A stretch of 56,406 nt of DNA, the filler included, from Jimgerdemannia flammicorona (taxonomy: Eukaryota), in the NCBI GenBank assembly GCA_003990765.1. It is 3 parts of 3 records of this genome, joined end to end, with 100 filler letters (N's around TTAATTAATTAA, not from the genome) between each part and the next. Parts side by side here need not be neighbours in the genome. Positions count along the whole stretch, not along the records: positions 37,681 to 56,406 come from RBNJ01002124.1; 2 more parts are not named here. One strand, 5' to 3'. Numbering within the stretch: position 1 is the stretch's first letter; the number at the start of each line of letters is the position of its first letter. Of this stretch, positions 3,846-56,406 are shown piece after piece. The notes under the pieces were generated by a model. That model was not told where the DNA came from and ran no database searches. It worked only from the letters and a program-made list of their open reading frames with translations. The position numbers and the translations under genes were made by a program.

Positions 3846-3974
3846 AATTATAAAGTCTATATTTAATTTTTGAAACATTTTTTCTCTTTTATATTTTGAC
3901 ATTTTCATACAATTTCCACTTTACTTTTTTAGTGTAGAATTATTTATTTAATTATTCATATGATGAAGATCAGA

Positions 3975-30659: not shown

Positions 30660-30790
30660 GGATGCTGGTATAATTCAGTATTATATCAGAATACTGGTGC
30701 TAGTATTATTCAATATTACATCAAAATGCCAGTGCTAGCATTATTCGGTGTTACATCAAAATGCTAGTATTGGTATTATTCAGTGTAACC
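30660..30790. repeat. ~35-bp tandem repeat (about 3.5 copies) between the ORF stop and TATA box of LTR C
   Basis: gtgctagcattattcggtgttacatcaaaatgcca-like units. Confidence 0.8.
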
Positions 30791-30797
30791 AAGGGAC

Positions 30798-31613
30798 TTA
30801 GAGCAGAATGTTCAAGACCATAGAGGCTTCATCATCAGAGGTCAGGATGTCTTTGAAGGAGATGAGGTCCATGAATTCATCATCATCATCATATAGGTTG
30901 TGCATTTCGCATATGTCACACAGGATGACATCATTGCTAATGACATCATCACGTTTGGTGGTGGGGAAATCAGGGGCTCTCTAATCTATGAGGTTCTCTT
31001 CTACAAAATAGGGGATAAATGTGGGGTCTTGAAGAGGTATAACCTGGATGCTTGGACCTTAGAATACTGAGATCAATCCTTGTAGGAATTGGTCTGAATT
31101 GTCCTGAAGGATAGGATGCCAGAAGTCTTCTACTTCATCACTATTGAGAGTGATAGTGGACTGGGCTTCTGTAGCTACTCTGGCTTCTAGTGCATTGATA
31201 CAGTGAGATGACAGGTCTCTGAAGTCTGAGACTCTAACATACTCCAAGTTAGGGATCAACCATAGTGTATATCTGAAGATCTGATGAATCTTCTTAGCTG
31301 TCCTTGCCTTGCATATATCCATAGAAGTGGTGTCTTGTAGCTCTTGAAGACTGGCCTGTGGAAACTCCTGGCAGAGGAGGTTTCCTATTTTGTACTCTTG
31401 CTATATTTGGAGGAATTCAGTAGCAATGGTGATCCTTGTTTCCATTTCACGGTGGTAGAGGATATAGTGATAAGGGTCACTAATACTCAGGTTGACACTA
31501 GAAGTCCTTTTTGAGTGGATCCTCATGGCTCTTCTGATGTCTTGGAACATCCTTTCTTCAACTGAGATGCCTTGGTGGTTCCTTGACCTTGAGGTTTGGC
31601 AGGTGGCAGGCAT
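30798..31613 (-). pseudogene. LTR-encoded unknown protein (family C), 272 codons, single frame with 3 internal stops
   Basis: MPATCQTSRSRN..MFQDIRRAM..D.YHYI..I*QEYKIGNLL..AKKIHQIFRYTLWLIPNLEYV..DLSS..LEARVA, then an acidic tail. Stops (TAG/TAA) are explicable by C>T/G>A. Confidence 0.75.
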
Positions 31614-33360: not shown

Positions 33361-36300
33361 TTTTTTTTTTTTTCACTTTATTATTTATTACAATCTATTA
33401 AATATAATTATATTCCCCCCTTCTACTATCCAATCCCCCTAAGAGACCCACTCCTCACACCCTCATACTTGAATACTACCTTGTCTCTCACTACTTCAAC
33501 TCTCCCCTCACTCTGCCAATAAATTTTCTCCACCAATTGATACTGCCAACCCCCCAGCAGATCCCATTCCAGCCACTAACCTGTCAAGACATCCTCCATC
33601 AACCATTCTTACCTCAACAGCTACTTCCCTAAGTCTAAATATTTTTCTTCCTCAAAGACAAACAATCAGTAATCTGCTAGCCCTACTTATATAGCCAATA
33701 TCTAATCCAAAGTAAGTCACTTCTTCCCAATCCCCTCTACCAATCTATCCTTCAGATCCTTCCATTAACCCCTCTCATCATCCCTCATTCACACAATATC
33801 TAATCTATTCTCAACTACTAATCAAACATCACCAAGTATCTTGCACTCTTCTAGCCAATGTTCTGACATCTATACAAACCCCCCTTCCTGCCCTACATTA
33901 TAGCACTTCTCACAGTCAAAGCTCCCCCCCTCCACAAGGTGGCCTGAGTAAAAGTTGAGTATGATATTCCTTTGTAGCATATGCCATCAGACCACTTAGT
34001 ACTTAGGTAGTAACTATTACCTCATCTCCATACTCTAGGCCCAGACTTTATTCTAGTTCTACTCTTCTCCAATATCTGCTACCTATTAACTATCAGGCTA
34101 TACATCCTGTCCCAACTCCCTTTGGTACTCAACCTCATTACCAATATTGAAGTCTAAGAGAGAGGTACCTCATAGCAATACTCTGTTCCATCTTCACATC
34201 ACCAGGCCCTAAGACCTCTCTCCTTCATCTCTCTGCCAGCAAATTCCAATATAGTGAGTCCCATCAACTACTCCCCACCAGAAGTTCTTATACCACATAT
34301 GCCCACTATTTTGAAGTTCAACTAAGAATAGTAGATCTCTGGTAGAGCCTCTTGGTAAGTATCTCATCTCTCAGACCTTCTTTATTAGAGGAATCTAGCT
34401 ACTACCCCTCAGTTCCACCACTCTCTTCAGCTACTATACTCTCAAACAATACAGCCTCTTTGGGATGTCAACCAGCCCAAGACCTCTTCTAGTCACCAGT
34501 AATAACAAGATTTCCCATCTAGTCTGACTCCTCTGCCCAGCCCAGATTGAATGTTTAGCTATCTTCAATAGCCTCTTCACTCCCCAGGCCAGAAAATCCA
34601 GATGATATATTAGATACCATAACTTAGACAGCTAGTAGATATTCAAAATTGTAATACACCCTACCAAAGATATATGGTGGCCTCCCCAACTCTACAGGGC
34701 CTCCCCCCAGATAGCCACTCACTACTCTCACCAAGGTCTCAACAAGACAGAGCCATATACTGAAAGATAGATGTCCAAGTACCTTACAGCCTCTTCAGTA
34801 GAGACAATTGTTCCAATGATATCCCCTCCTACTAGGTTATTGCCTAATACTATTGTTTCATACTTATACTAGTTAAGTTTAGTCCCAGAGTGTATCTCAT
34901 ACTACTCCACTATTTCTTAGAGCTCTGCAACATCTGTAATCAATCTCAGACCAACCATTATATCATCTACAAAGGCTTCAATTTTCCACACAATACTAAA
35001 TACTGAGAGCCCCACTATTTTCTACTAGATCCTATCCATCAATAGCTCCAAGGACAGAGTATACAGAATAGAAGACAGTGAGTCCCCCTGGGGAACACCT
35101 CTACACAGAGAGAATGCTACTCTGTTATATCTATTATATATAAGTACTGCTCTACTCTCTTCTAGCAGGCTGATCATTAACTCTTGGAACTACTGAGAGA
35201 TACCAATCTTATCCAGTATCTTTACTAGCCAGATCTGCCAAACATAGTCATATACTTTCTCTTAATCCAAGAAGACCAATCTCCCATCTAGTCCACAAGC
35301 TTGAGTCTCTTCAATATTACCATATACCCAGACCATGCCATCTCTAATTAGCCAGCCCTCTATAAAACTTCACTGCTCCTCTCCTAAGACTTGCTGGGCC
35401 ACCTTCCATAGCCTTGCCACCACTACCTTAGTGACCAACTTTCTGTTCATATCTAGTAGCATAATCAGCTACCAGTTCTTTCAGTCCTCCCTCCTGCTCT
35501 TATTCTTAAAAAGCAGTACCACCAGCCCTAGATCCTGCTCACCCACCCATCTTTCCAATTGCAATATCAGGTCACAAAGTGCCATCAACTCTCCCAGTAC
35601 TCCAGAGACTTTCACCATCTTCTGCCAAAAGTCCCAGGGCAAACCATCCTCTTCCAGTACTATATCTGGCAACCACCTCTAGCTTTGCCCACATTACCCT
35701 CCAGTTCTCTACTCCCTTTAGAGTCAAAAGCTCTGCCCAATCTTCCAGAAGTCCAACCAATCTAGATAGCCCAGGTTACCCTTCTCCTCCTCTGCCTTCC
35801 TGCTACCTTACTAACTATACTTCAGTAAACCTTAGCAGCCTTTTTCAATTATATCTTATTGGACACCAACTAACATACACTCCTATATCTAACTCTCCAA
35901 CCTCTGCCAAATATCCTCTGCTCACCTATCTCACAATATCTTCTCAGCTAACAAAGAGTAATTGAGATACCAATGTTCTAGCCAATTCTTACTCCCCCCA
36001 AAGTAACCCTGCTCCAACAGCCCTCAGTGATCAGACTATGGACTCCACTCAGTATTCAGTAACTTTCAAACATCCAAACCCCAGCAGTCTGCCATCAGTA
36101 TTCAGTCAATCTTTATCTCCAGACCATTTGTTCAGTGTGTGTAAACTCTCCTATCTCTCCAGAACCTCCTGCCAGTATCCATCAGTGAGCTCAGTCTCTC
36201 TACTTCCTCCTACAACTCCAGACCCCTACTTCTGCCCTCAGCCCTCTGCCCTCTATCCATTCTATCTACCAGCACATCTTGTATCATATTAAAGTCCTCT

Positions 36301-37492: not shown

Positions 37493-37580
<88 letters not shown>

Positions 37581-37680
37581 NNNNNNNNNNNNNNNNNNNN
37601 NNNNNNNNNNNNNNNNNNNNNNNNTTAATTAATTAANNNNNNNNNNNNNNNNNNNNNNNNNNNNNNNNNNNNNNNNNNNN
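37581..37680. other. Artificial contig spacer N44-TTAATTAATTAA-N44
   Basis: Identical to 18741-18840. Confidence 0.97.
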
Positions 37681-37758
<78 letters not shown>

Positions 37759-39839
37759 ACCGACTCTCTGGAAAAATAGCAAAACTGAAAGCAAGCTTAT
37801 TCTCCCCATACCACTGGTGGAAAACGAGGTATAGATATTTAAGAAGATTCCTTAGAGGAAATTCTCCAGCAGTGAATAATATCAGAATTACTTCTGGCAT
37901 ATGGCATCAAATATATGACCCTTTAATGTATAAATCTAATATGTTAGGCAACTGTACTATGAGCATACCACTTTCTGAGAAAAATAGACCTTACCGAACT
38001 TTTGATCTCCCAAATGGTATAACAATACTAGAACAAAATTAGAAGGCCCCTGATGAGGATGTTGAAAGCTAAGAAGGGGAGAGTTATAAGTGCACAATCT
38101 CCAAGTTACTGAAATCACATATCACCTACTGAACAAGCCACTGAAATCACACACAACCTCTAAACAAATCTGAAAATCACCTGCATGATTATGAAGCTGA
38201 GTCAAACCAAAGTCACAGTGTACAAAGCTAAGTCAATATGAAGTCATGGAATATAAGATTTACACAAACAGAATCTTACCAATTAGGACTAAATACATAT
38301 ATACTGAGCACTGAGATATGTTGAAACAGAAAACCAAAACAAACAACAAACCACAACTTCTGAACATACACAAACATGACCACTGAGATCTACAACTACA
38401 TCTATACTGATATTTGAAATATTATTATCAACTGAGCCACACTCCCTCTGCTCCTCATGAATATCTATAGCCTAACACCCCTCTACTTCGTGGAAGCCTG
38501 ATGGAATACCCTGAACATGCTTAGCAAGACCTACTGAATTAGACAAATCTCAAGCTACTACCAGATTGGCCACCTCCTAGAAGATATGGTTGAACATTAC
38601 CATAATACAGACATCATCCAGATGTCCCAACACCAGAAACTTATCACCCACAAACACCAAGAACTCTTTTATGAGTACAGCACCTTTATTCCCCATCTCC
38701 AAGTTACTATCAGTGAAATGGTTACTACTCTGTCCTATGGCCAAATCGATGATATGATACAAGAACTCAATCACAAGTACCTCAAATATGTTCAAACCAC
38801 AGACAGAACCTTCCCACACCCTGATGACCACATTCTGCAAATGCCCCAAATCAGATATGCCATAAAGGATGTCTATGATATAATCCGATTTGATGAAGAC
38901 AAAGCAGAAGACAATGATCCCTCTGATACTAACATGACCTCAAGCCAAAGATCTCTGCCAACTCTAATCATACTGCCAACCTTGCCAATGAACCTATAAT
39001 AGTTCATAACTATCTATGAGACCTATTGGAACAATGACCACTAGTATGAATACCAACCCATATTTATCTCTGATTACTTCAACTACAATGAAGAAACTAG
39101 AGAACACAACCTGTACCTTCAGACAACTCTCGAGATGGAACCAATAACTCCACCACCTGAATATGAGTGACATGAACTATAGTTACCAGTTTACTACAAC
39201 TCTGTGACTCATAGTGTCATAATCTATAGAAGGTACACAGACAGTGAATCTAATAAAAGCGAAGATGATGTATCCCTTCTTCATCTACCAACATCTTATC
39301 CAGCATATGAGACAGATGATGCTATCCTGTAGGATAGTGATGAAGTCCCAATGTATTACTATCTCAGTGAATAAGGAGAGTTAATCTATGAACAACTCTT
39401 CCTAGATAACTACAGTGCAACCAATCTATAAACCTTAGTAAATTTTAGTAAACTTTAAAATAATAAACAAATTCAAAAAATTAAAAATTAAAAAACTAGC
39501 TCTATTATATGATTCTTTGATTAATTTACTATAATGTAACAGAGCCAGAATTTTTATTTAATTTTTTTTTATATTTTTTTATAATTTTTAAAAATAATTT
39601 TTTTTATTATGTTAAGCCAAAATTTGGCCGCAGTCACATGTTTCTTAGAAAGGAAATCACTATATAAATTTTATAATACTATATAAATTTTATAATAAGA
39701 GATATTTTATTATTGTACAATTATTATTTATTTCTATTAATTTATTTATATTATATATTTTTATATTAGATATAATTACCTTCATTATTTATTTTTCAAA
39801 ACTTATTATTAATTTATTTATATTTATTTATTTTATATT

Positions 39840-41915
39840 TTTATATTAGAAATTCTTTGATGAGAATGATATTTTTTTACTACAACTTCTGCTTTTTTCC
39901 CTATTAATCCTTTATGGTATGCATCCATATATTTAAAAGATTTTCTAGCATATTTATGAATAGTTGTTAATTTAATACTATCTAAAGCTTGAGGAACAGT
40001 TTTATTTAAACTATTCCAAGTATAATCACAATGTTCTCTTGTAAATAATTTTGCAGCTCCCTAATATATTTCAATATAATTAAGTTCACAATGAAATTTA
40101 GGATAAAAAATAATCTTATGGCCAGCTTCAGTAATAATTTTTTCAAGCATACATTTTTGATTAAGAAAATCAGACTGTAATTCTAAAATTCTTTGTATAC
40201 AACAATTATTTTTTAAATGTTTTTCTTCATCTTTAATACATTTTTGACAAATTTTAAGTAAATCATCTTTTTATAATCCTCTTTTTTGTAAAATTATCTT
40301 CATTCCTTTTGGTTGACCTCTTTTTTCTTCTTCAAAATAATTATCTTCAAAATTCATAAATTGTATTTGACTATTTTCTAAAATTGTATTTTTTAATTTT
40401 TTTTTTGTTTTTCTCCCCAATTTAAATTCATTTTTTAACATTTAAAACATCTTCTGCAAATGCTTGATATCCTGTTGAATTATCAAAAGCAAAAATTGCA
40501 ATACAACCAGGATATGTAACTTCAAAAATAGGAATTGCCTTATTTTTTACTTGTTTAACAATATCTTCAGCAGTCTACCAACCATCTTCTTTAACTCCTG
40601 GTATAATAGTTTCTCTTGTCATTTTAGATATATTAGGATATAATAATTGTTGTTCTTCATTTAAATATAAAGATTTAATTGTTTTAGTTAAAAATTCACT
40701 TATCATTAGTACACATCCTTTTCCTTTTTTTCTTAAAGATATTTCATCTTGAGGATGCCAAATTAATTTTGTACTATCATTTGAATAAAAAATAGATTCA
40801 TCATGAGTAACAAAAACATGATATTTTTCATCAATCTCAAGATTAGAAAAAAAAAGTTTTTCAATATCATCTTCATCAAATGTTATTAAAATTTTTTCAT
40901 AAATATTCATTTGATTTAAAAATATTATTCTATCTTTTAAAACATCCTCTCTTTCATAGCCATCATAATAAATTCCTTTTTTAACTTCACTTAAAACCCA
41001 TCCTAATTTTTCTAACCAATTTTGAGCTATATGTTCATGAATAATTTTTGAAATTCCACATGAAGGTAAAATATTTTCATTGATATATTTTTTTAGTAAT
41101 AATGGTGTAATATTAAATTTATGTTCTCTAAGATATTGTAAAACTTTAAGATAAATATCTTCATAAGTTAATAAACTTTTAGTTTTTATATGTTTACCTT
41201 GTTTTGATAAAGAAAGTTGTTGAGTTTTAAACCATTCTTTTGACCAACTTATAATATGGCATGCACTCTAAGCTTTCCATCCTAAACTAATAGTAATAGT
41301 CATACTTGCTTTAGTGATATTATAACCAATTTGTCTAAGTCTTAAATATTGAACAAGAGCCATTAATTTTATTTTTAATTGATTATTAATATTTAGCTCT
41401 ATTAATTTTTCTTTGATATTTTTAATCTCAACTTGATAATTAATATCTTTATCAGATAAATATTCAATATCAATTTCTTCAGTTTCATTTTTATTTTCAT
41501 TATTATTTTCAACTTCATTATTAATATTATTAGTATTTATATAATTAAAAAAATCTGTAATTTTAGCAGAACTTATAGCTATTTCTTTATTTTGTTGTTT
41601 ATGTCTTATTAAAGTACATTCTAAATTATCTCTATATATTGCAATTAATGAACCTGTAATTTTTTGACCTTCATTAAGAATATTTAATAAATTTTTCCAT
41701 TGTTGTTGATTAAAAGTCAAATCTTCTTCTATTTTTTCTTCACTTTCACTGTCTTCTGTTTCAATATAATAAGGTTCACTATCATTTTGTATTTCAATAT
41801 AATAAGATTCATTATCATTTGTAATTTCTTCTTCAATATAAGATGAATATATATTTGCTTTTTTGATAGTACAAGCTTTTTTTAATTGAGCTGCTCTTTT
41901 GTTTGGTGGTGGTAT
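39840..41915 (-). pseudogene. DDE transposase with a few stops and a frameshift; start codon apparently mutated ATG>ATA
   Basis: FVTHDESIFYSND, RKKGKG, FAFDNS, PKGMK..L..RGL, GHKIIFYPKFHCELNYIE.Y*G.AK, SHQRI. The PxxxxELNxIE motif is characteristic of IS630/Tc1 DDE domains. Confidence 0.85.
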
Positions 41916-41949
41916 TTTTTTTTTTTTTTTTTTTTTCAATTAATTGAAA

Positions 41950-42985
41950 CAGATGGATGGATGGATAGATAAAACGATACAGACAAAATGATGATGGTTG
42001 AGGCAGATGGATGAAATGATGACAAAATGATGATGATTGAGGCAGATAGATAAAATGACAATAATTGAGGCAGAGGTGGACAGAATAATTGAGGCAGATG
42101 AAATGATACAGATAAAACAATGATAATTGAGGTAGATGGACAAAATAACAACAATTGAGGCAGATAGATGAAATGATGACAATTGAGGCAGATGGATGAA
42201 ATAATGACAAAATGATGATGATTGAGGCAGATGGACAAAATGATAATGATTGAGACAGAGGTAGACAGAATGATTGAGATGGATGGAATGATGTGGACAA
42301 AATGATGATGATTGAGGCAGATGGACAAATGATGATGATTGAGACAGATGGACAAAATGATGACAATTGAGGCAGATGGAACAATGTGGACAAAACAATA
42401 ATGATTGAGACAGATAGACGATAACAATTGAGGCAGATGGATGAAATGATGACAATTGAGGTAGATGGAATGATGTAGACAAAATGATGACAGTTGAGGC
42501 AGATGGATGAAATGATGACAAAATGACAATGATTGAGGTAGATGGACAAAATGATGATGATTGAGATAGAGGTAGACAGAATGATTGAGGTGGATAGAAT
42601 GACATAGACAAAACAATGATGATTGAGACAAATGGACAAAACAATAATGATTGAAGCAGATGGATGAAACAATAACAATTGAGGCAGATGGACGAAATGA
42701 TGACAAAACGATGCCAATTGAGATAGATGGACAAAATGATGATGATTGAGACAGATAGATAAAAGACAATGATTGAGGCAGATAGATGAAATGATGACAA
42801 TTGAGGCAGATAGAACAATGTAGACAAAATAATGATGATTGAGGCAGATGGACAAAATGATGACGATTAAGGCAGAGATAGACAGAATAATTGAGGTAGA
42901 TGGAATGATGTAAACAAAATGATGATGATTGAGGCAGATGGATGAAATGATAACAATTGAGGCAGATGGAATGATGATTGAGGCC
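41950..42985. repeat. ~1-kb minisatellite (attgaggcagatgga(c/t)aaaatgatgatg-like units) inside the DNA transposon, upstream of the transposase
   Basis: Dozens of visible imperfect units. Source of the three overlapping low-complexity minus-strand ORFs. Confidence 0.92.
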
Positions 42986-43222
42986 AACAATTAAAATGAC
43001 AATGAGAATAATTGAAATAGCAATTGAAATGAGAGTTTTCCAAAGAATATCTCAAATGAGATAATTAAAAAAAAAAAAACCAGTTAGCTTCCCCTTTAGG
43101 ATTTTTAACTCAGTTGTAATAACTTGAGAACCATCAACTTCAGCTTCAAAATATAAGTTCTGGTATGATAAACCTTTCCTCCAAGAAATATGAAGACTAT
43201 ATAAACCCAAACCCAGTTAAAG

Positions 43223-43261
<39 letters not shown>

Positions 43262-44440
43262 CAGCAGAGTTTCTTACAGTCTTGCAGTACAAATAGTAGT
43301 TTATTATTAATAGTACTCAAAGAGGTTGACTTCAGATTAAGGTTCTAGCCTAATATATATACATGTATATATCTAGTCAACTTTTGGTATTATAACAGAT
43401 AATAGAGACAGACCAATTATATACTTAGGGAGAGGCAGAAGACTTGTAATGATTTTGACATAGTTGAGATGTTTTTTTTTGACACACATGATCACATGAC
43501 CATTGATCACATGTTGCCAGAAGGTCAGAAATTGGCTGCAGTTACAATGATTTGATCACGTGAGATTGGTCACACTGTACTTCATCAGAGATAATGTCAT
43601 CAATAGTGATGTTATCGAAGACTATCCAGACAGCATCTAAATCTATAGATAGCTTAGCAGTCATAGTATAGTTAGATTAGCCTTGTACAATGTGACTGTG
43701 AACTGACTCAGCAGTCAGACGATCTCTTGATATATTAGATCACACTTGTACTATATAACTACATTCTGACTCAGCAAAGCACTAAGTGCTATATCCATAT
43801 TCAGCATAGCCCAGATAGCCTCTCACTAGTATAAATACCCCCTCTCCCAGACCTCAGAATCTCAGACTTAAACAGACTCAAACACACAAGAACATTTCTG
43901 AATACTTCTCCACAATATCTCTTCATACAACTACTCCTAGTATAGCAATATCATAAATAACAAATAAATCTATTTAATAACCCACAAACCACTCTTAAGT
44001 AAATCCACTCTCCATTAGGTCCCACTCCTAACCCTGTTATGAAATTTCCTAATTGGGTATTGTCTGCAGCGATATGCCAATTTAACTAAGCTGGTCTTAG
44101 TTTCTTGAACTTTCTGAAATATGGAAAATCCTGAATATCTAGAACTAGTCCAAAAAAAGACTTTGAGTTGAGATGTCAATCTGATCTTGAAATCAATAAG
44201 CGTAGAGGATGTACTCCATATGAAATTGATCTTGACCTTAAGAAAATAGTCTTTCAGAATATCCAGAACTTCCAGAAAACCCTTCCAGAACTACATAATA
44301 GTTACTCTAAAAAGCAACCCTCTTACACAGTTCCTGCCAATAAGCTGATATATTTTGTTTGAAGTTTCTTTTAGTTTTATTGTTTATTATATATAACTTT
44401 GAGAATTCAATGAGAATATTGATTCTTAAGGAGGAGGAGA

Positions 44441-46047
44441 TGTAATATTTTAGCATAGTTTACTTCTTTTCTTTATCTTTCTTCAATATTCTACAACCTT
44501 CCGGTACTTTCCAAATACTTAGAAATCCTCTCTTGGTACTGAGTATCCACTAGTACTTATTTAGCTAGTCACTGAATGTCCTGGAAACTTATAGAACTTT
44601 ATTTGTCATCATTTGTCATCTTTACTGAGAACTTTTCTCTTAGTATTTTCCTTTGATTTCTCAGATCCTTCTGGATCCTTCTTTCAGATCTTATATAAAT
44701 ATCCCCTTTATTCTTATAAATAAAGCTCAGAATATTTTCTCCCAGAAATCTTTCAAGAATACTTTTTTTTTTTTTTTTTTTTTTTTTTTAATGGACTCAA
44801 TGTCCTGCAGATTTTTATTGGAAGAGAACCTAGACTATATAGGCCAAAACCCTCTCCCACCACCCATCAAGTACTGCTCCCTCATTAACCTAGGCTAGCT
44901 ATTATCCAGCAGCTCGACCATGTTAGGCACAGCAGGGCCTATGGTGGCCCACACCTCATTCTGCATACCATACTCTTCCTACTACCAGGGAAAACCCAAC
45001 CATACACCAACAACCAAAAGCATATACCTGAGAACCTAATGTATATACAAGATCACACTCAAGCTGAATAGAAAAGCCTCTGCTACTCCAAAGAGAATGA
45101 CAGATAAAGAAAAACTCTCATCAAAGCACAATATGGTGGATAGGGCCTGATTCTCCCAGTCAAGATGAGTAAAGGACTTATACATAAGATGGAAGGAGAC
45201 CCCCAATACCCCACTACTCAAGCTTGTAGGCCTCAATCATACTCCCAGTTCTAGTTGAGTGCAGCCAAGATGTCTGAAATAGGTAGCCTCAGGCCCCTGA
45301 CCCCCTCTGATGACCAGGGTCTAATCCGCCAACCCGCCAAAAGAAGCCAAGAGTGACACCTACCACCTAACCACACCACACTAATCAAAAGGCCCCATCA
45401 AAGCAGTACCTGCCCTAGCCCCAATGACTGCCCCTAGCCTGGCATCCTACTGGTTCACTGTTATCACCCTTCCTCCTATCTGTGACAGCCATCTCTCCTC
45501 CCATCCCAACAACACCTGAAAAGCAGTCACCTATGTTAGAACTGCACTCGCCGGGAAGCTTGCCAAAGTCAGAGGGCCCCACCATAGGCACTGAGGACCT
45601 GTAGGTAACCTATACTAAGCACTTGATGCCCAAGGTCAGCCAACTTTCTATGTAGTCCAAGACACACCAAGATACCACCTTGTTGGTGATGGCAAAAGGA
45701 AGAAGGCACTGCACCAAAATGGATGCACTCCAGATGCAGCCAAAGGCACTAAAAACTGTGAAAAAGTAGAGAAGACACCGATCTGACACCAATAAAGAGA
45801 CAACTCATCACTATTGTCCTCCTCCCACTATACCCATGCAGGTACAGCAAACCAACCCAAGGTAGAGGAGATAATAATAGGAGAAAGAGGACTTGGAAGA
45901 TTGCCTACTAAACCTTGTAACTGGTAAGGTAGCAGAGAAAGAAGTTATCTGCTCCTTCAAGAATACTTGAATTCTTAAGTATCTCTTTGAGCTACTTAGA
46001 ACCACCAGAACTAGTCACTTCCTCATTTAGAAACTAGAACTGTTACA
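44441..46047 (+). mobile_element. Short LTR (~0.42 kb net, family D) preceded by a PPT and interrupted by a retroposon
   Basis: AAGGAGGAGGAGA then TGTAATATTTTAG ... CTAGAACTGTTACA (imperfect terminal inverted repeat). Confidence 0.65.
44764..45952 (-). mobile_element. Full-length ~1.2-kb retroposon copy
   Basis: Poly(T) at the left end; ~15-bp TSD TCTTTCAAGAATACT (44749-44763) / TCCTTCAAGAATACT (45953-45967). Confidence 0.9.
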
Positions 46048-46311
46048 ATAATGCACTATCTCCTCAGTTGAATAGCTTCTCAAATAAGTAGTTTTTTTAA
46101 TTCTTTCTTAACTACTTTTATTTCAAGAGATGATATATAATATATATATTTCTTAGATAGTATAGCTTCTGAAGTAAGTTTAATTTCATAGTTTACTTCT
46201 TATATAGATAGTGGTAGATCAGATAGCTTATCTGGAAAAAACATTCTTAAATTTAACTAATAGCAACTTGATACTTTTATTGATTAATAGTCTTTTATCT
46301 TACTTCTTAAG

Positions 46312-48343
46312 TGTAAGAGGGTTGCTTTTTTAGAGTAACTGTTACATAGTTCTGGAAGGGTTTTCTGGAAGTTCTGGATATTCTGGAAGACTGTTTTCTT
46401 ATAATCAAGATCAATTTCATATAGAGTGTGTCCTCTATACTTATTGATTTCAAGATTGGGTTGACATCTCAACCAAAGTCCTTTTTCAGACTAGTTCTGG
46501 ATGTTCAGGAGTTTCCATATTTCAGAAAGTTAAGAAACTAAGACCAGCTTAGTTGAATTGGCATATCACTGCAGACAATACCCAATTAGGAAATTTTGTG
46601 ATAGGGTTAGGAGTGAGACCTAATGAGAAGCAGATTTACTTAAGAGTAGTTTGTGAGTTATTAAATAGGTTTATTCACTATTTATGATATTGCTATACTA
46701 GGAGTAGTTGTATAAAGGGATATTGTGGGGAAGTACTCAGAAGTTGTATTTGAATTGTCCAGGTCCTAGATTCTGAGGTCTGAGGGAGGGGGTATTTATA
46801 CTAGTGAGGGGCTATCTGGACTATGCTAAATATAGATGTAGCACTAAGTGCCTTGCTGAGTTAGAATGCAGTCATATAGTACAAGAGTGATCTGATATAT
46901 AAAGAGATCGTCTGACTGCTGAGTTAGTTCACAGTTACATCATAAGGCTAATCTAACTATACTATAACTGCTAAGCAATTTATAGGTTTAGATACTATCT
47001 GGGTAGTCTTCGATGACATCACCATCGATTGTATCATCTCTGATAAAGTAGTCATCTAGGAAGAGTGGTTCACAGATTACTTCTCCTTGTTTGCTGAGGT
47101 AATAATATATTGAGACTTCATCACTATCCTATAGGATCATATCATCTGCCTCATATACTAGATAAGGTGTTAGTGGGTAGAGGAGTAGTGCATTACCTTC
47201 GCTTTCATTGGATTTGCTATCTGCATATCTTTTATAGGTTACAGTACTATGAGTCATGAGATTGTAGTAAGCTGGCGGCTGTAGTTCATGTCATTCATAC
47301 TCAGGTAGTAGAGTGGTTGGTTCGATCTCGAGGGTTGTCTGAAGATACAGGTTGTGTTCTCTGGTCTCTTCATTATAGTTGAAGTAATCAGGAGTAAACA
47401 CAGGTTGGTATTCATATCAATAGTCATTGTCCCAATAAGTCTCATATACTGTTATGAATTGTTATAAGTTCATCAGCAAGGTTGGTGGTGTGATCAGGGT
47501 TGGCAGAGATTCTTGGCTTGAGGTTATGTCAGCATCAGAGGGATCATTGTCTTCTACTTCATCTTTATCAAAGTGGATTATATCATAGATATCCTTCATA
47601 GCATATCTGACTTGAGACATTTGTAGAATATGGTCATTCAGGTGTGGGAAGATTCTATCTGTAGTTTCAACATACTTAAGGTACTTATGGTTGAGTTTTT
47701 ATATCATATCATCGATTTGGCCATAGGATAGGGTGGCAATCATTTCAGTAGTAGTAACTTAGAGGCAGAGAATAACAGTGCTATACTCATAGAAAAGTTC
47801 TCGATATTTATGGGTGATGAGCTTCTGGTGTTGAGACATCTGGGTAATGTCTGTATCATGGTGGTGTTCGACCATGTCTTCTAGGAGGCAGCCAATCTGA
47901 TAGTAGCTTGAGATTTGTCTGATTCGGTGGGCCTCGTTAAGCATGTTCAGGGCATTCCATCGGGCTTCCACGAAGTAGAGGGGTGCTAGGCTATGGATAT
48001 TTATGAGGGGCAGAGGGGGTGTGGCTCGGTTGATAATGGTATTCTAAATGTCAGCATAAATGCGGTTATAGATCTCAGTGGTCATGTTCATGTATGTTCA
48101 GAAGTTGTGGTTGTTATTTGTTTTAGTTCTCTGTTTTGATATGTCTCGGGGCTTGGTATATATGCATTTGGTCCTGATTGATAAGATTCTATTTGTGTAA
48201 ATCTTGTGTTCCATGACTTCATATTGACTCAGCTTTGTATGCTGTGACTTTGGTTTGACTCAGCTTCATGATCAAGCAAGTGATTTCCAGATTTGTTTGG
48301 AGGTCACATGTGATTTCAGTGGCTTGGAGGTTGTGTGCTTACA
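46312..48343 (-). mobile_element. Solo LTR, family A (2032 bp), carrying a U3 ORF
   Basis: Perfect TGTAAG...CTTACA termini and exact 5-bp TSD TTAAG (46307-46311 / 48344-48348). TATAAATACCCC on the minus strand at ~46800-46789. Confidence 0.92.
46988..48085 (-). pseudogene. LTR-encoded unknown protein (family A), 366 codons, uninterrupted copy with deamination-type stops
   Basis: MTTEIYNRIYADI*NTII..ARWNALNMLNEAHRIRQISSYYQIGCLL..YRELFYEY..ATLSYGQIDDMI...IEDYPDSI*. The 1098-nt span is a multiple of 3 and is colinear with the plus-strand copy. Confidence 0.78.
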
Positions 48344-49957
48344 TTAAGTTAGATAATAGTAATAAAAGTATATATTACTTTCTTAAGTACTTTCTTATAT
48401 TGTATTATAAATAAGATTATAATATAAGTCTTATTTATAGGCTTATCTATCTTGATAGTGATATTGATTTCATCTTATATTAAAATAACTTTATTTTTTA
48501 TACTAATTAATATTTAGGTTATATTTTATAAGTTAGAGTTTTCCTAAGATTAGGTCATAATCTTCTAGGAGTACAACCTCAAATTAACTCATTCTCAATA
48601 TTTCTAAATCTTGATAGATAGTTTAGCTACAATTAATTAAGAGAATATAGTATATCATCTACTATAACCACTCTATCATTCTTAAGTATAGACTTAGTGA
48701 GAATCTTGAGATTTTTAATAAAGTTCTAATTAATAAAGTTATTAGCTACTCTACTATTAATAAGTACTTAGACTTTATTTCCTTTAATTAGATCTTTAAA
48801 GATAAGTATAACTTAAGCTCAGTTCTTCAATAGACTTACTGCTTAGTCTATACTTCTAAAGTTTTTCTGATCTCACTTAATTATAGATAGTTCTTGAACT
48901 TCTATAACCTTAGGCTGACTTATTTCTTCTAAAATCATTTGTATTACTTGATCTACTTCTTTAATAGTATAATCTTAGTTCTTTTGATTAATAAGTAAGA
49001 CTTAAACTTATCTATAATAATCTAAATCAATAATATCAATACTAATATTTAAGTAATAGTTGATGCTGAGTTCTGATCTAGCTGTAATTCTTATATAATG
49101 ATCTTCTGAATATTGAATTACAATTTTAGTAAATACTAGAACTCTTCTTCTGATAGAAATAATAACTTATTTAACTGAGTATAGATTAAGTTTAATGGTT
49201 TCTTCTAATTGATATTAAGAGATCTGAGCTCTCAGATATAGCTTTTTGATCTTTAGTTCTAGTTAACTAGATAAGATTGATAAATATATCTTTAGACAAT
49301 ATGGTAACTAATCTGACTAGTTCACTTATCTTCTTAGAATATTTGATTACAATATGTCTATCTGATAGTAGAAGAAATATACTTCTGACTTCTTCAGATA
49401 TTTCTTCTCTTCTGAGATAAGCTTGGTATTCTTCTTATTTATAGAATTCAGATCTATTGAAGCTGGTCTCACTATCTTGAACTAGTTCTTAGAGTAGTTT
49501 TCAAAATCATTCTTTTTATAGTATTTTAGTTCAAAGTAATATTTAGCCATAGATAATGATATTAAATCTAATAAAGGGTAATCCAAGTGACTATAAAAAA
49601 AAAAAAAAAAAAAAATGATATTAAATCTATTAGCTATCTTTATAGTTTTTTTAAAAGAACTTAGTTCTTCTAACTCAATCTTGACTTATATATTTTCTTT
49701 TAAATCTTAGATATAGCAGTCTATCTTCTTATCTTCTATAATATTAGATATTGTGACATACGCAATTGATAATGGAGTACTGGTGACTGCTAAGATCAGA
49801 TGATATAATGGTATGACAATCGAATAGACAGCCTGACCCACTAAGTGATTACCCCAAAAGGAGCAATGATAATCCGAGCCAAAAGGAAGACTACATTATT
49901 TAAAGAACCATACTCCACCTCAAGAATCAGCACCAAAGAACAAGTACCTACCACATA

Positions 49958-50884
49958 ATGCCTCCTATCTGCCGCCCCAACCAGACCTCCTGCTGCTCTT
50001 CCCTCTTGCCTGGCCCAAAGACTCTAATCCTTGAAGCTATCAAGAAGGCTATTTGGCGCCCAAACACCTCTGAACATCTGAACTTCTACACCAAGGACCT
50101 TGGACACTTCATCAATTATCAGTACATAATGATCCAATAGCTTAAAGATACCACTGAACAAATGACCCTCTGGCATGATTACGAAATTGGACACCGCCTT
50201 CGTAATGAAACCCAAGAAGATGACCAGGAAGACCTCATTGCCGAAATGTTAACCACCAGCCAGCTAATCAAAAGAGCCCTCTGTGTCCACCAAATCTTCC
50301 ACCATATTCTCTGGGCTATAGTATACTTACAAGAAGTGACTGCTGGAAGTCTTGCCTGTCTCTCAACTGAAGATGCAGACTGGATAGAATCAGAAGTAGC
50401 CAACTCTATTGGTAGTAACTGAGTTGCTGTAGGAAGCCAACAAACTGAGCCCACTCAACCAGGCTTTCACACCACTCCACTCTGAGACAACCATCAAGGT
50501 TACCTAATGAGTCTCATGGAAATCTTCGAAGGACCACCTATTACCATTGCAATACCTGTTGGAGCAACCCCAACTACTCACCACCCTGTCAGCTATAATT
50601 CACACCTCATCATTTGGGAACCAAATTAAGAAGTCTCAGAAGTCCCTACCAATACAGAAACTGAAGGATCTGAGGAAGAAGAAGAGGAGGAACAAAGAAT
50701 CTACCAATCTTCTGTCTGCCTTCAAGCAGTCCAAGGGTTGGAGAATGTCATCGAAGATGATTGGCCACAATTCTACCCCCTCACCTCCTGGCCGGCGCTC
50801 CCATCCTTTGAAGAATGAAATGAAGAAGTCACAACCCAGCAAGATGATTGGTTCACTGACGAAGGGTACTTTACAATTCAGTGA
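49958..50884 (+). pseudogene. LTR-encoded unknown protein (family B), 309 codons, single frame with 5 internal stops
   Basis: MPPICRPNQ..LEAIKKAI..LNFYTKDLGHFINY..LWHDYEIGHRL..ALCVHQIFHHILWAIVYLQEV..CLS..IESEVA, then an acidic tail (SEEEEEEQ, DDW). Stops are TAG/TGA/TAA, consistent with CAG/CGA/CAA deamination. Confidence 0.78.
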
Positions 50885-51130
50885 TCCAATGTCTGTTTCC
50901 TCAGTCCGGTCAGCCAATGTTTATCAGCAAGTCAGTAACATTCGTTTCCAGTGATATCATCTCCAACAACTGAATCTGGCACTGGCACTTGTCTTATCCC
51001 AATTCAGTGATCCAACATCTGTTTCCTCAGTCCGATCAGCCAACGTTTGTCAGCAAGTCAGTAACATCTGTTTTTAGTGATACCACCCACAACATCCATA
51101 TCTAGCACTAGCACTCATCTTATCCCAATT
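50874..51130. repeat. 126-bp tandem duplication between the ORF stop and TATA box of LTR B
   Basis: caattcagtgatccaa... recurs at 50874 and 51000. Confidence 0.88.
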
Positions 51131-52436
51131 TGACACAAACAATTGTTGCACCCATATTCAGCAATTAAACCACCACAATGTAGTATACCTTAGCCCCCCC
51201 CCATAGCTAGCAAATTTGTATAAATAACCCTATATCTTAGAGTGAATAAACCTCAGTCAGTTTGTTTTTAAAGTAAAAAGGATTACAGAGAAACCTCACT
51301 GCCTCCAAGAGACTGGATAAATTCTGAGAACAAGATAACTAGAGCAATGATTGCTCAAGGTTTGAGTTAAAGAATTTTCTCTTGCCACAGAAAATGTTCA
51401 AGATTTGCTGCTAAGGAAAGCCACACAAAAAGCCATTCAGTTCAGTTTAAGACCTGCCACTAAAGGAAAGCCATACAAAAAACTGCCAACCACCACCAAG
51501 ATCCCACCAGCCCAACCGTTGTGCATTTGACCTGACTGCTGTACATTTGGAGCCAACTGCCATTCGAGGTTTAAGACCGTGTATTCGAGACCCGCCATTC
51601 AAGTGTTAAGACCCCAGCCAAGGAACCCAAGGATACTTAGCTTAGGAAAGCCAGCACCGTCGTCATTCACCTAACAAGCCAGACAGATGAGTTCCCCTTT
51701 ACCCACTGTGCCACGAACTGTATATGTTCAAGAAGTAATTCGCCACTAGGAAAATTCATCAACCACTAAACAACCGAGTCTCCACCATATGGATCAGATG
51801 AACCGATCACGTGACCATCGACCTGCAACTATCACAAATGCACTCAGTCATATACTACGTGCTCCACCAAGTAGCACATTGAGCCGTGCTTGAAGCAGCT
51901 AGAGATACAAACCGCATGCCACAATATATAACTCTAAAAGAATTAATAGAAATTATATATTATAACTTTATATAGACTTGAGTTACTTGATATTTGCTAG
52001 CCTGTCTCTGGCTAGTTTGATAGTATTAACAAGCTTGAACTACTTGTAGAGATTTTTCTTAAATATTGCCCAATCTTTAACTTTTGTTTCTTAATAGATG
52101 GAATTAGTCATAATATAATTATATATATTATTAGATAGCTATATTCTCTCAGAAAAGAGTAGTAGTAAATTAAATTTATATGTCTTCTTTTATTTTTATA
52201 AGCTTGTAGTATATATTAGTCTAATTAAAAGATTCAGACATCAGTAGACAGTTTTTCTTAATAGCTATTAAAGATATCTGACTTGAGTAACTTAAAGCTG
52301 ATAGAAGTAATTATACAATAAGCTACTATAGTTATACTTTTTACTTTCTATTATTCTAACTATACTTATATATTTTAGATCTAATATATCATAGTAGTAA
52401 TTCTATATTTCTTCTAGATTAATCTAAGTCTCTATA

Positions 52437-52439
<3 letters not shown>

Positions 52440-52529
<90 letters not shown>

Positions 52530-53692
52530 GACTTAAAGTTCTGTGGATTTTTATTAGAAGAGAACCTAGACTATATAGGCCAAAACCCCCTCTCCCCACC
52601 ATTCATCAAGCACTGCTCTCTCATTTAATCTAGGCTAGCTATTGTCCAATAGCTCAATTATATCAGATATAGCAGGGCCTAATGTGACCTATATCTCATT
52701 CTACATACTATGCTCTTCCTACTACTAGAGGAAACTTGACCATATGTCAATGACTGAAAGCATATATACAAGATCATACCCAAGCTAAATAAAATAGCCT
52801 CTACTACCCCAAGTAGAAATAATAGACAAAGAAAAAACCCTCCTCAAGATATAGAATAGTAGATAGAGCCTGGTTCTTCTAAGTGAGATGAGTAGAGAAC
52901 TTATACATAAGGTAAGAGGAGACCCCTAATATTCTACTACTCAAGTCTACAGATCTTAATTATGTTACTATATCAGCTCCTAGTTCCAGTTAAGTATAGC
53001 TAAAATATCTGACCTAGATAGCCTCAGACCCTCTAGCCATCCCTAATGACTGGAGCCCAACCTCATGAATTGCCAAAAGTAGCTGAGAGTAATATCTACT
53101 ATCTAACTACCCTGTACCAATCAAAAGACCCCACTAAAGTAGTATCTACTTTAGCCCTGATGACTGTCTCTAGTCTGGTATTCTACTAGTCTATCTGTTA
53201 TCACTCTTTCTCTTATCTGTGATGGCTATCTCCTCTCTCATTCTAACACTATCTGGAAAACAGTTATCTATACTAGAACTATACTTACTAGGAAGCTCAC
53301 TAAAGCTAGAGGGTCCTACTATAGATACTGAGGATCTGTAAGTAACCTATACTAAGCACTTAATGCCCAAGGTTAGCTGACTCTCTTTATAATCCATAAT
53401 ATACCAAGATAATATCTTATTAGTAATGGTAAAAGAAAGAAGATACTGTATCAAAATAAGTATACCCTAGATATACATAGCTGGAGGTATCAAAAACTAT
53501 AAAAAAGTAAAAAAGATACTGATTAGATACTGATAAAGAGGTAACTCATCACTATTGTCTCCCTCTCACTATCCTGTAATAGATATAACAAACTAACCTG
53601 AGATAGAGAGAGTATTAGTCATAGAAAGTAGACTTAGAAGATTGCCTACCAAATCTTATAACTGATAAGGTAGTAGAGAAAGAGGTGTATTG
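52440..53692 (-). mobile_element. Full-length retroposon copy with a long poly(A) tail
   Basis: Poly(T) 52440-52525; 17-bp TSD TCTAAGTCTCTATATCT (52423-52439) / TCTAAGTTTCTATATCT (53693-53709). Confidence 0.9.
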
Positions 53693-55237
53693 TCTAAGTT
53701 TCTATATCTATATCTTCTATTATAGAGAGATCTAAGTAGTTAACTAGTTCTTTAGTATTTATTTTGGATTTATATAACTAATTGTGACTAGTTGTGACTA
53801 GTTTTTAAATTTATATAAGATTTTTTAATAAGATAAGATTTATCATTACTATTAAATATATATAATAGTTCTAGTTTTTTTAAGAAGAAGTAACTAAATT
53901 TAAAAGTTTTTAATAGGTTTAAAGTAGCTCAAAGAGATAATTATAGATATAATATTTCAAAAAGTTATATAACTAGCTAAGATTAGATACTTAGTGCTAA
54001 GAAAAGATAAGAATATTTTAGTAAAGTCTTAATATTAAGAGAGAATTTCTAAATATTTAAAAGATATATATTGGAATATTGTGAAATATTTAAAAAAAGA
54101 TAAGAAAAAACTAGAGAAAAGATATAAAAATATATTATAATTAAGATATAACTAAAAAATTGTTATATAGTATCTGAATCTGATTTCTGATATAGTATAG
54201 CAGTATAGTTAGTAGTTATCTAATCTTATATAAGTTATAAAAAATCTTATAATTCTAAAAAATCTTATAGTTGTAAGACAAAAAGAAGTTATATACTTAA
54301 CTATCTCTATAGTTAGTAAACTTATATAAATATCTCTAGTATTTAAAGTGAATAAATCTTAGATTAAAATAGTTTAAAAATAAAGAGACAAGAGAACTAA
54401 TAAGTTTATAAATATATAGATATACTTTGAACTTATCCACTTCTATATATCTGAGAACTTAGAAGAGTTAAAGAAAATTAAGTTTTTAAGATAAAAAAAT
54501 CTATTATACTTCTTAAACTATATATCTACTATATTATAACTTAGTATTCATTGGCTGGTAATTTAAGATAAATCTCTCATTTTTAAACTAAATAATAAAT
54601 AACTGCTACCATCTAAATAATCACTCAAATTGAATTAAAACATCTAAATAAGATAGATATAAGACCATCAGTATTTTATAAATATATATCTGATAAATCA
54701 GTTATCATCTTTCTGAATAATTTTGAGCAATATACTACTATAAGAACTCTGTCCATAGTTCAGCAAGTAGCTCTTATGCTCTTCAGTCTATAAGATCTAG
54801 TAAGAGCTGTATTTTTGATAGAAAATTATACAGAACAAGATAATACTACATAGTGCTCTGAACTAGTCAATTTAATCCAGATTAGATTCAGATTAATTTG
54901 GATTGAATCTCATCTGGATTAACTCAGATGAAAAATAAGCTGATCTAGATTGATTTAAATCAAACATTGTTTTGATTTTCAAAATTAGACAATTAAATGT
55001 TTACATCAATAACTTGATGTATAATTATCCAATTTTGATAATTATGATGTCATTTTAAAGCCCTTAATAAGGCCTTTCTAATGATATCAAGAATATTGAA
55101 ATTGGATCATATATTGCTAAGTTATCAAGAAAAACATCCAACTTGCCAATTTTGGAAATTATTCAACTTGCTGATTTTGGAAATTTCTTTAAAAAGATCA
55201 TTTAATGTTCTTAGTATCATTAGAAAGGCCTTATCAT

Positions 55238-56406
55238 CCCTTTCTCCACTACCTTACTGGTCACAAGGTTTGGTAGGCAATCTTCCAAGTCCCCTTTCCC
55301 CTATTATTACCCCCTCTACCTCAGGTTGGTTTACTGTGCCTGCAGAGGCATGGTGGGAGGAGGGTAATGGTGATGAGTTGTCTCTTTATCGGTGTTGAAT
55401 CAGTGCTTCCTCTACTTTTTCACAGATTCTGGTGCCTTCAGCTGCATCTGGGGTGTACCCATTTTGGTGCGGCACCTTCTTCCTTTTGCCATCGCCAACA
55501 AGGAGTTGTCTCAGTATATCTTGGGCTATGTAGGGAGTTGGCCAACCTTGGGCGTCAAGTGCTCAGTATAGGTTATCTACAGGTCCTCGGTACCTGTGGT
55601 GGGGCCCTCTGGCTTTGGTGAGCTTCCTGGCGAGTGTGGTTCTGGCATAGGTGACTGTTTTTCAGGTATTGTCAGGATGGGAGAGGAGATGGCCATCACA
55701 GATAGGAGAAAGGACAATAATGGTGAACCAATAGAGTGCCAGGCTGGGGGCGGTCATCGGGGCTGGGGCAGGTACTGCTTCAGTGGGGCCTTTTGATTGG
55801 TGCAGTGCAGTTAGGTAGTAGGTGTCACTATCAGCTTCTTTTGGTGGTTAGCGGGGTTAGGCCCCAGTTGTTAGAGGGAGTTGGGAGGCCCAAGGCTACC
55901 CATTTCAGGTATCTTGGCTACACTCAACTGGAACCAGGAGCTGATATGGCAATGTGATCAAGGCTTACAGACTTGAGTAGTGGGGTATTGAGGGTTTTCT
56001 CTCACCTCACGTGTAAGTCCTTTACTCATCTCGACTGGGAGAACCAGGCCCTACCCACCATGTTGTGCTTTGATGAGGGTTTTTTCTTTGCCTGTCATTC
56101 TCTTTAGGGTGGCAGAGGCTATTCTATTCAGCTCAGACATGGCCTTGTACATACATTGGGTTCTCAAGCATACGCTTTCAGTCATTGGCATATGGTTGGG
56201 TTTCCCCTGGTAGTAGGGAGAGCATGGTGTGCAGAATGAGGTACAGGCCTATATCGGCCCTGCTGCACCTGACATGGTCGAGCTGCTGGACAATAGCTAG
56301 CCTAGGTTAATGGGGTGGCAGTGCTTGGTGGGTGGTGGGGGAGGGTTTTGGCCTATATAGTCTAGGTTCCCTTCTAATAAAAATCCGCGGGACATGAGTC
56401 CATTAA
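55238..56406 (+). mobile_element. Least-mutated retroposon copy; the contig ends at the start of its poly(A)
   Basis: Same 5' start (ctttctccactaccttactggtcacaagg) and 3' end (aataaaaatccgcgggacatgagtccattaa). Retains more GC and CpG than the other copies. Confidence 0.9.

Follow-up and report, generated by a model that had tools for sequence, protein, structure and literature searches.

A conserved protein gene inside long-terminal-repeat-like units of three families in the fungus Jimgerdemannia flammicorona

Introduction

Accessory genes are what sets complex retroviruses apart from simple ones, and several of them reach into the long terminal repeat (LTR): sag of mouse mammary tumour virus (MMTV) is a sense open reading frame (ORF) in the unique 3′ region of the LTR (U3), and nef and the bel genes of the foamy viruses are ORFs that overlap U3. 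The spumavirus protein Tas/Bel1 (with Bet) is encoded by a 3′ accessory ORF running into U3. It joins a DNA-binding part to an acidic activation domain at the C-terminus and works on the LTR of its own virus, and its expression starts at a separate promoter, not at the main one of the LTR. To our knowledge, fungal LTR retrotransposons have been treated as gag-pol-only elements whose LTRs are short and non-coding. Here we describe four LTR-like units, which belong to three families (two to A, named A1 and A2, and one each to B and C), in a 56,406-nt stretch of DNA from the fungus Jimgerdemannia flammicorona (assembly GCA_003990765.1), hereafter the window, each of which carries a sense ORF in its putative U3.

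The brtn gene of the Botrytis element Boty is reportedly antisense, to go by the title of a 2011 paper by Zhao et al. Two sources describe brtn as a fungal extra gene (PMC4227169; bioRxiv 10.1101/2021.04.13.439636), and the first of them lists it with the internal gag-pol region (PMC4227169). In rice, ORF0 of the Retrosat2/RIRE elements lies between the 5′ LTR and gag-pol and evolves faster than pol (PMC3485330). In a review of plant additional ORFs (aORFs), the phrases ‘in the LTR’, ‘within the LTR’ and ‘inside the LTR’ each have 0 occurrences (PMC7264820). The Podospora element crapaud has a U3 that has diversified 5′ of the TATA box into unalignable subfamilies and a conserved 3′ half; its LTRs are 339-443 bp long with a U3 of <200 bp, no coding capacity is reported there, and repeat-induced point mutation (RIP) converts the terminal TG of these LTRs to TA (PMC10787394). 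A full-text literature search, with subscription journals and Repbase outside its scope, turned up no LTR of a fungal or plant retrotransposon described as holding a sense gene. A gene inside the U3 of an LTR is so far known mainly from complex retroviruses, and the protein family described below is previously undescribed.

The units in the window share something with each of these systems. As in MMTV sag, the sense ORF lies within U3, so that both LTRs of an element, and any solo LTR, would carry it; Sag, however, is a superantigen of a vertebrate retrovirus, a type II membrane protein that the protein described here resembles in neither sequence nor domain design. The nearest working analogy may be spumavirus Tas, likewise the product of an accessory ORF that reaches into U3, although no similarity of sequence or fold was found, the host is a fungus, the ORF here lies wholly within the LTR, and its function is a prediction. 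ORF0 and brtn are also lineage-specific extra genes of unassigned function on LTR retrotransposons, but neither sits inside an LTR. With crapaud the units share a fungal LTR with a diversifying U3 and the change of terminal TG to TA by RIP; they differ in that the LTRs are 1.5-2.2 kb long and hold a gene in U3.

Layout of the LTR-like units

Between the families no nucleotide similarity was found, the sole pair of units aligning in a self-BLASTN of the window being A1 and A2, which are inverted copies of 83-87% identity (38134-39413 plus 43578-44328 in A1 and 46311-48326 in A2). Common to all four units is the order of their parts: a TG or TA end, the sense ORF, a spacer, a 13-nt promoter core, GTATAAATAMCCC, then AATAAA and a CA end. 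A2 (46312-48343, minus strand), a solo LTR, runs from TGTAAG to CTTACA and is flanked by the target-site duplication (TSD) CTTAA/CTTAA. A1 (38085-44327, plus strand), the probable 3′ LTR of an element, runs from TATAAG to CTTACA and is split by an insertion at 39414-43577. B (49752-51923, plus strand) is a solo LTR-like unit with imperfect inverted ends, TGTGACATACG...CGCATGCCACA, and C (30296-31857, minus strand), also a solo LTR, has TA...CA ends and the TSD CTATC/CTATC. Thus TG...CA ends with a short inverted repeat are seen in A2 and B, and the TA at the start of A1 and C corresponds to a G-to-A change of the RIP type. An exact 5-bp TSD was found in two of the four units, A2 and C, and A1 has none (flanks AGAGT and CAGTT), as is expected for a 3′ LTR. 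Overall, three of the units are probably solo LTRs and A1 is probably a 3′ LTR.

The 13-mer GTATAAATAMCCC has four matches in the 56-kb window, one per unit and none elsewhere even when one mismatch is allowed, and it always stands in the sense of the ORF and 3′ of it; 0.30 matches would be expected, and 0 of 100 shuffles reached four. The core reads GTATAAATACCCC in A2 (46789-46801, minus strand), A1 (43829-43841, plus strand) and C (30524-30536, minus strand), and GTATAAATAACCC in B (51218-51230, plus strand). A candidate poly(A) signal, AATAAA, follows in A2 (46670-46675, minus strand, where it aligns with A1), B (51245-51250, plus strand) and C (30503-30508, minus strand), the distance from the start of the TATA box to AATAAA being 26-27 nt in B and C and ~125 nt in A. 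Hence a predicted TATA box and a predicted poly(A) signal of the same sense are present in all four units, and the order of parts read from these sites is U3 (ORF, repeats and TATA box), then R (the repeat region), then U5 (the unique 5′ region). Because AATAAA lies so near the main TATA box in B and C, transcripts started in a 5′ LTR would probably lack it, which would limit polyadenylation to the 3′ LTR.

Tandem repeats occupy the spacer between ORF and TATA box in B (126 nt x2, 50874-51130, plus strand) and C (35 nt x3.5, 30663-30784, minus strand), and family A has no tandem repeat in that place. A sequence-only reading that preceded this analysis had proposed three nucleotide-unlike LTR families with one layout and with tandem repeats in the spacers of B and C, and its coordinates, layout and repeats all hold. 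The pentamer TAGCA, the only candidate for a common spacer motif that occurs at least twice each in A2, B and C, was rejected, as 23% of shuffles match it.

The U3 ORF and its homologues

Read through with X at the stops, none of the four ORFs is open and none is frameshifted within its span. The A2 ORF (46991-48091, minus strand) has 367 codons with 7 in-frame stops. The A1 ORF begins at 38376-39413 (plus strand), a stretch that reads through for 351 codons to 39428 with 11 stops, and its last 20 codons lie beyond the insertion at 43578-43637 (plus strand), where they were located by tblastn of P0012 residues 228-247. The B ORF (49958-50881, plus strand) has 308 codons and 5 in-frame stops, and the C ORF (30801-31613, minus strand) has 271 codons and 3. 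The lengths of 272-366 codons given earlier for a sense ORF are therefore close to those found (271, 308 and 367), and what did not stand is the implied openness, each ORF carrying 3-11 stops.

Homologues of each family were recovered, several of them intact. The C ORF matched the intact protein P0006 (271 aa) at 65% identity over 100% of its length (E 1.5e-105), with P0005, P0007 and P0008 as further relatives, and the B ORF matched intact P0009 (325 aa) at 68% identity (E 2.6e-136), with P0010 and P0011 as further relatives. For the A2 ORF the match was intact P0012 (247 aa; 57% identity, tblastn 1e-85), which spans the C-terminal two thirds of the ORF and whose final residue coincides with that of A2. 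A profile search with the B+C alignment against 1.84 billion representatives yielded no more than 11 proteins at E<=0.001, which makes this a very small family; all are environmental, among them subfamily D (P0013 and P0014) and the distant members X (P0017, P0019, P0020 and P0021). The sequence-only reading had likened the motif to that of an expanded family of uncharacterised Glomeromycota proteins, and this search, with its 11 environmental proteins only, gave it no backing; the distant member P0021 resembles the motif that had been cited. The two longest contigs with homologues measure 19,434 nt (P0025) and 4,848 nt (P0014). At the DNA level, L001, an unmutated 1535-nt metagenome contig with a 291-aa ORF at nt 376-1251, was the only metagenome-contig locus recovered, and no related locus was found in the viral-contig collection or in the genome-contig collection.

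Intact frames are present in P0006 (271 aa), P0009 (325 aa), P0027 (331 aa), P0014 (342 aa), L001 (291 aa) and P0021 and P0032 (286 aa), and these intact lineages are 18-57% identical to one another; identities between versions of 271-342 aa were also put at only 25-45%. Their conserved columns cluster in a core (the motifs W..YEIG..L, A..IHQ.F.H.P and L[ST]), and their tails are variable. Since neutral sequence would not remain open, frames that are still open at 18-57% identity point to purifying selection. Collectively, the comparisons support the view that these ORFs represent a genuine, conserved gene for a protein, placed in sense inside LTR-like units and 5′ of the TATA box.

Decay of the window copies by RIP

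The stops in the window copies are of one kind. At each of the eight in B and C the intact homologues have W, Q or R (Q, R, R/Q, Q and R at the five of B; W, Q and W at the three of C), and each stop corresponds to a single C:G-to-T:A change, TGG to TAG, CAG/CAA to TAG/TAA or CGA to TGA. Between A1 and A2 there are 205 transitions and 22 transversions; an A follows at 51 of the 90 C/T sites whose following base is invariant, and a T precedes at 29 of the 53 G/A sites whose preceding base is invariant. The two copies thus differ by the C:G-to-T:A excess and the CpA-to-TpA preference of RIP. All four window ORFs are pseudogenes, inactivated, as the pattern of changes indicates, by RIP. Taken alone, RIP and the GC-rich genes would suggest a host of the Pezizomycotina type among the ascomycetes sooner than one of the Glomeromycota.

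The public DNA run X1, labelled soil metagenome, contains 0.09 of the words searched for and offers a view of related copies; no RNA run was among the matches listed. Its contigs were aligned at >=85% likeness, which placed 2887 of them on 46312-51923; depth here is summed over all organisms and is not copy number, and so read it was 214-2361 over LTR A against 0-2.5 over the 1.3 kb between A2 and B. On B it was 54-172 in the bins of the ORF, 364 at the TATA bin and <6 at the repeats and U5, and in one X1 contig the 126-nt repeat of B is present once instead of twice. The differences between the window and X1 were A>G at 69 and T>C at 45 places, against G>A at 37 and C>T at 31, so that X1 mostly has G/C where the window has A/T, as it should if it is the window copies that have mutated. 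Among the 40 of 202 difference rows listed is one for position 48045, where 299 of the 307 depth units of X1 have C, by which codon 16 of A2 turns from TAG into TGG.

Relationship of the three families

The B and C ORFs are homologous by ordinary sequence comparison, with 29% identity over 182 residues in BLASTP (E 1e-12) and an hhalign value of 8e-20, and subfamilies B, C, D and X match one another at hhalign P 1e-16 to 1e-23. Family A is quite probably a divergent member of the same protein family, judging from profile-to-profile alignment, in which it aligns colinearly through its N-terminal domain. The hhalign comparison of A with a 17-sequence profile (B, C, D and distant members) gave P 2.3e-4 and a probability of 44% over 121 columns, and that with the 23-sequence combined profile gave P 4.3e-5 and 69% over 128 colinear columns. 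With single subfamilies, A aligned to D at P 0.0086 (128 columns), to X at P 0.0023 (111 columns) and to C at P 0.052 (61 columns), and to B at P 0.013 in a match confined to the acidic tails. With five reversed-sequence controls the P values were 0.069-0.6, and the 16-33 columns that aligned were scattered.

That the family A ORF is unrelated to the B/C ORF, and that the common layout had an independent origin, is the alternative that survives best, and we consider it unlikely. It can point to pairwise BLASTP of A against B and C (E 3 and 0.33) and to HMMER on the six-frame window (independent E-values of 0.8 for A1 and 16 for A2), none of them significant, as well as to hhalign probabilities of just 44-69%. 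The same HMMER search, however, singled out A1 and A2 as the only matches in the six-frame window apart from B and C; the combined, D, X and C profiles align with A colinearly at the same N-terminal positions, whereas the reversed controls are short and scattered; and A has the promoter core of 13 nt and the general arrangement of parts in common with B and C. The earlier claim that the three ORFs can be aligned to one another thus holds for B and C, and for A it has support at the profile level, not in BLASTP or HMMER.

The leader of the ORF

A TATA-like box lies 60-95 nt 5′ of the ATG in each ORF. In L001, which is unmutated and not AT-enriched, this ORF-proximal box is TATAAAAG. Furthermore, a motif near CTTACCACA occurs 10-15 nt 5′ of the ATG in the leaders of B (49930-49957), C (31614-31640, minus strand) and L001 (nt 348-375), and the leader of family A has ACAACCACA at the corresponding place; in L001 an AG stands immediately 5′ of the ATG. 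The motif could be a conserved 5′ leader, or the branch-point and acceptor pair of a spliced subgenomic RNA.

Sequence features and predicted structure of the protein

The protein falls into three parts of different character. In C, B, L001 and P0030 the first 40 residues are arginine-rich with a net charge of +4 to +8. From residue 161 to the end, the net charge is -11 to -35 in eight of the nine proteins tabulated (-21 in L001), the exception being P0021 at -2, and the last 80 residues hold 18-28% D+E and 18-35% F/W/Y/L/I/M. An AlphaFold2 model of P0006 made from 17 sequences had a mean predicted local distance difference test (pLDDT) score of 73, with residues ~50-160 above 88 and residues 221-271 below 50, and a model of the core (L001 residues 40-175, 21 sequences) reached a pLDDT of 89.4 and a predicted template-modelling score (pTM) of 0.81. 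The core model consists of six helices, one of 37 residues followed by five short ones, and the acidic tail is predicted to be disordered; the helical domain with an acidic tail that had been proposed from the sequence is therefore also what the models and charge counts give.

Searches for known relatives of the protein gave no confident match. No Pfam family was matched by the four window ORFs, and across 17 members only scattered matches at E>=0.024 appeared; a profile search of PDB sequences returned nothing at E<=10, and Protein Atlas gave nothing informative for P0006. By these Pfam and PDB profile searches, the protein does not join the U3 accessory proteins Sag, Nef and Tas in sequence or fold, and it resembles them only in its position and its design. 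At E<=0.001, neither the full-length nor the core model had a Foldseek match in PDB. Among the best 50 rows of VIA-align for the core model, seven were ParB-type helix-turn-helix (HTH) proteins (SopB twice, VirB, P1 ParB, KorB twice and Spo0J), at Z 2.9-4.3 and a root-mean-square deviation of 4.1-4.8 A with 73-80 residues aligned within residues 32-118, scores that lie below the noise level of the tool. The ParB-type resemblance came at Z 3.0-3.5 with the full-length model, and the Foldseek list also has VirB, Spo0J and ParB, at E>=2.5.

The flank of A1 and the search for internal regions

One base 5′ of the start of A1 lies a 12-nt polypurine tract, AGAAGGGGAGAG (38072-38083, plus strand), the one copy in which such a tract adjoins a putative 3′ LTR; for comparison, purine 12-mers with >=5 G make up 0.27% of plus-strand and 0.13% of minus-strand window positions. 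Upstream of it, a frame of 94 codons (37758-38039, plus strand) is open from the join of assembled pieces to 45 nt 5′ of A1 and may be the end of an internal region. The start of A1 is 327 nt from this join, where an exactly palindromic spacer at 37493-37757 (T88, N45, TTAATTAATTAA, N45, A77; N run 37581-37680) is most likely an artificial join, so that the sequence on its two sides need not be contiguous. The arrangement of A1, the polypurine tract and the 94-codon frame fits a 3′ LTR with its polypurine tract, preceded by what may be the end of an internal ORF that was truncated where the assembly broke within a repeat.

Pfam searches of 150 stop-to-stop ORFs and shorter read-throughs detected no gag, integrase or RNase H in the window. 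The weak Pfam matches in window frames were RVT_2 (E 0.0075), dUTPase (E 0.0025) and DUF5963, and the RVT_1 and RVT_2 matches were assigned to neighbouring elements and not to units A-C. No reverse transcriptase or integrase therefore places the units in Ty3/gypsy.

Neighbouring elements in the window

GC-rich gene islands (~50-57% GC at 8-18 kb and 23-24 kb) alternate in the window with AT-rich repeat blocks. The insertion that splits the A1 ORF is a 4.2-kb DNA transposon (39414-43577) with inverted ends CAGTGYRACCAATCT and a duplicated TA, Tc1/mariner-like by eye and without a Pfam match at E<=0.01. It has ~22% GC yet minus-strand frames of 230 and 223 codons, and is thus apparently natively AT-rich and not RIP-degraded; inside it lies a 1-kb minisatellite with a 28-nt unit (41964-42976). 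Between A2 and B, a 52-codon frame (49011-49166, minus strand) has a weak dUTPase match (E 0.0025, below the Pfam cut-off), and in X1 this interval has a depth of ~2 at 88% likeness only.

A repeat of 1.0-1.2 kb occurs in five copies of 68-82% identity (1523-2523, 2645-3851, 44759-45945, 52498-53686 and 55232-56406), with a sixth match at 2840-3836 that overlaps the second copy. Two or more of the copies adjoin T runs (44763-44789 and ~52440-52530) that amount to poly(A) tails on the other strand, which suggests that these repeats are 3′ pieces of a non-LTR retroposon; the repeat family has no similarity to the LTR ORF family. At ~34775-35480 (minus strand) an RVT_1 match (E 1.1e-15) has by eye a motif of the long interspersed nuclear element (LINE) type, and it is faced at ~32300-32950 (plus strand) by a more degraded look-alike, seen by eye and without a Pfam match; just 5′ of this plus-strand look-alike comes LTR C, which has a TSD of its own. 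Finally, the weak RVT_2 match (E 0.0075) falls in an AT-rich stretch between 149-bp direct repeats of 85% identity (at 19255 and at 22334), and this segment (19255-22482) is probably a RIP-degraded copia-type remnant.

Discussion

The arrangement first noticed in the sequence is largely borne out and goes well past chance. On balance, we favour the reading that the units are LTRs of one old fungal LTR-retrotransposon lineage and that the U3 gene is an accessory gene under purifying selection in active copies. The LTRs would have diverged past nucleotide alignment and retained their design, in which the gene takes up most of U3 and is succeeded by enhancer-like repeats, the conserved TATA core, the poly(A) signal and lastly U5. 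Purifying selection would have kept the gene in active copies, and the four copies in the window would have been killed by RIP. The identification of the units as LTRs draws on their ends, the 5-bp TSDs, the layout of promoter and poly(A) signals and the polypurine tract adjoining A1, all of them sequence characters. The proposal of a selected accessory ORF in U3, which the sequence-only reading had put forward, is in keeping with a conserved gene that is intact in lineages 18-57% identical.

Apart from the pairwise comparisons of family A given above, several observations weigh against this reading. No full-length element with paired LTRs, a primer-binding site (PBS) and gag-pol is present in the window, and the 94-codon frame 5′ of A1 matched no Pfam family, pol domains included, and nothing in Protein Atlas. 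The TSD of B is ambiguous in its AT-rich flanks (GATAT against ATATA); the TSD once proposed as part of the shared layout stands as an exact 5-bp repeat for A2 and C, and A1 has none. No common motif of the spacers of A2, B and C survives a shuffle test, and the ORF-proximal TATA boxes of A, B and C sit in AT-rich RIPed DNA, where such a motif is common. As for the protein, VIA-align against 48,161 chains returned a best Z of 3.9 for the full-length and 4.4 for the core model, no confident fold match, and with scores below the stated noise level the ParB-type HTH is a lead from the models and not a fold assignment.

What the protein might do can be proposed from its design. A basic N-terminus, a helical core that resembles nucleic-acid-binding domains and an acidic, hydrophobic tail together suggest the design of a transcription activator. 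The arginine-rich N-terminus would serve nuclear entry, the helical core would bind nucleic acid, and the acidic, hydrophobic tail would activate transcription of the protein's own LTR, as spumavirus Tas does. Of the mechanisms considered this is the likeliest, though well short of even odds, and we put it forward tentatively. The protein could be expressed by two routes. Its template may be the 3′ portion of the element's RNA, or a spliced form of that RNA; alternatively, transcription may begin at the gene's own TATA-like box 60-95 nt 5′ of the ATG, with the AATAAA of the LTR as its poly(A) signal. If the ORF-proximal box is a promoter, every LTR, solo ones too, would be a self-contained gene.

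A role other than transactivation is less probable: the ORF would still be a real accessory gene of the LTR, acting on RNA, in export or packaging of the Rev/Rem/CERV-like kind, or against silencing or RIP. Its N-termini, arginine-rich and positively charged in C, B, L001 and P0030, and conserved leucine-rich C-terminal motifs such as LNFLL would suit such a role, and the protein has no confident fold match that would speak for one function over another. Acidic tails with bulky hydrophobic residues, on the other hand, are more typical of activation domains, and we know of no need for export factors in fungal LTR elements.

It is improbable that the units are not LTRs at all and instead are complete single-gene mobile elements of 1.5-2.2 kb, mobilized by a retroviral-type integrase in trans. 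None of the four copies flanks gag-pol in the window, two units have TSDs of their own, the ORF has its own TATA-like box with AATAAA 3′ of it, and of the 21 contigs listed with homologues 18 span no more than 619-1625 nt although the ORFs on them are complete or nearly so, all of which would suit such elements. Short contigs, however, are what high-copy repeats are expected to give (2887 fragmentary contigs of X1 aligned to 46312-51923), the TG..CA ends, 5-bp TSD and TATA-AATAAA layout form the exact picture of a solo LTR, A1 has no TSD and a polypurine tract before it, and a unit without PBS and polypurine tract has no known replication route. Least probable of all is that the ORF is a fragment of a host gene, caught once by an LTR, of no use to the element and now decaying, since, even though all four window copies are pseudogenes, it is intact in at least five lineages 18-57% identical, which neutral decay would preclude, the window stops are of the RIP type and not random decay, and no longer or host-like paralogue is among the 11 matches (longer and shorter length classes were not searched, and fused or split forms are possible).

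Returning to the reading of an LTR accessory gene under selection, its furthest extension is that this fungal LTR lineage is ‘complex’ in the retroviral sense, each LTR being a self-contained gene, with a promoter of its own, the ORF and the poly(A) signal that it shares with the LTR, for a DNA-binding transactivator of new fold that acts on the adjacent LTR promoter; we offer this as speculation and think it doubtful. If it were so, each transposition and each formation of a solo LTR would scatter a regulator gene together with its target sites through the genome, and RIP may be a host counter-measure. In fungal genomes and soil metagenomes, ORFs of this kind are probably either listed as hypothetical genes of the host or masked as repeats. 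If the reading is right, the gene would explain the 1.5-2.2 kb length of these LTRs, an orphan protein family would gain a testable role, and fungal retroelements, too, would have evolved regulatory or accessory proteins.

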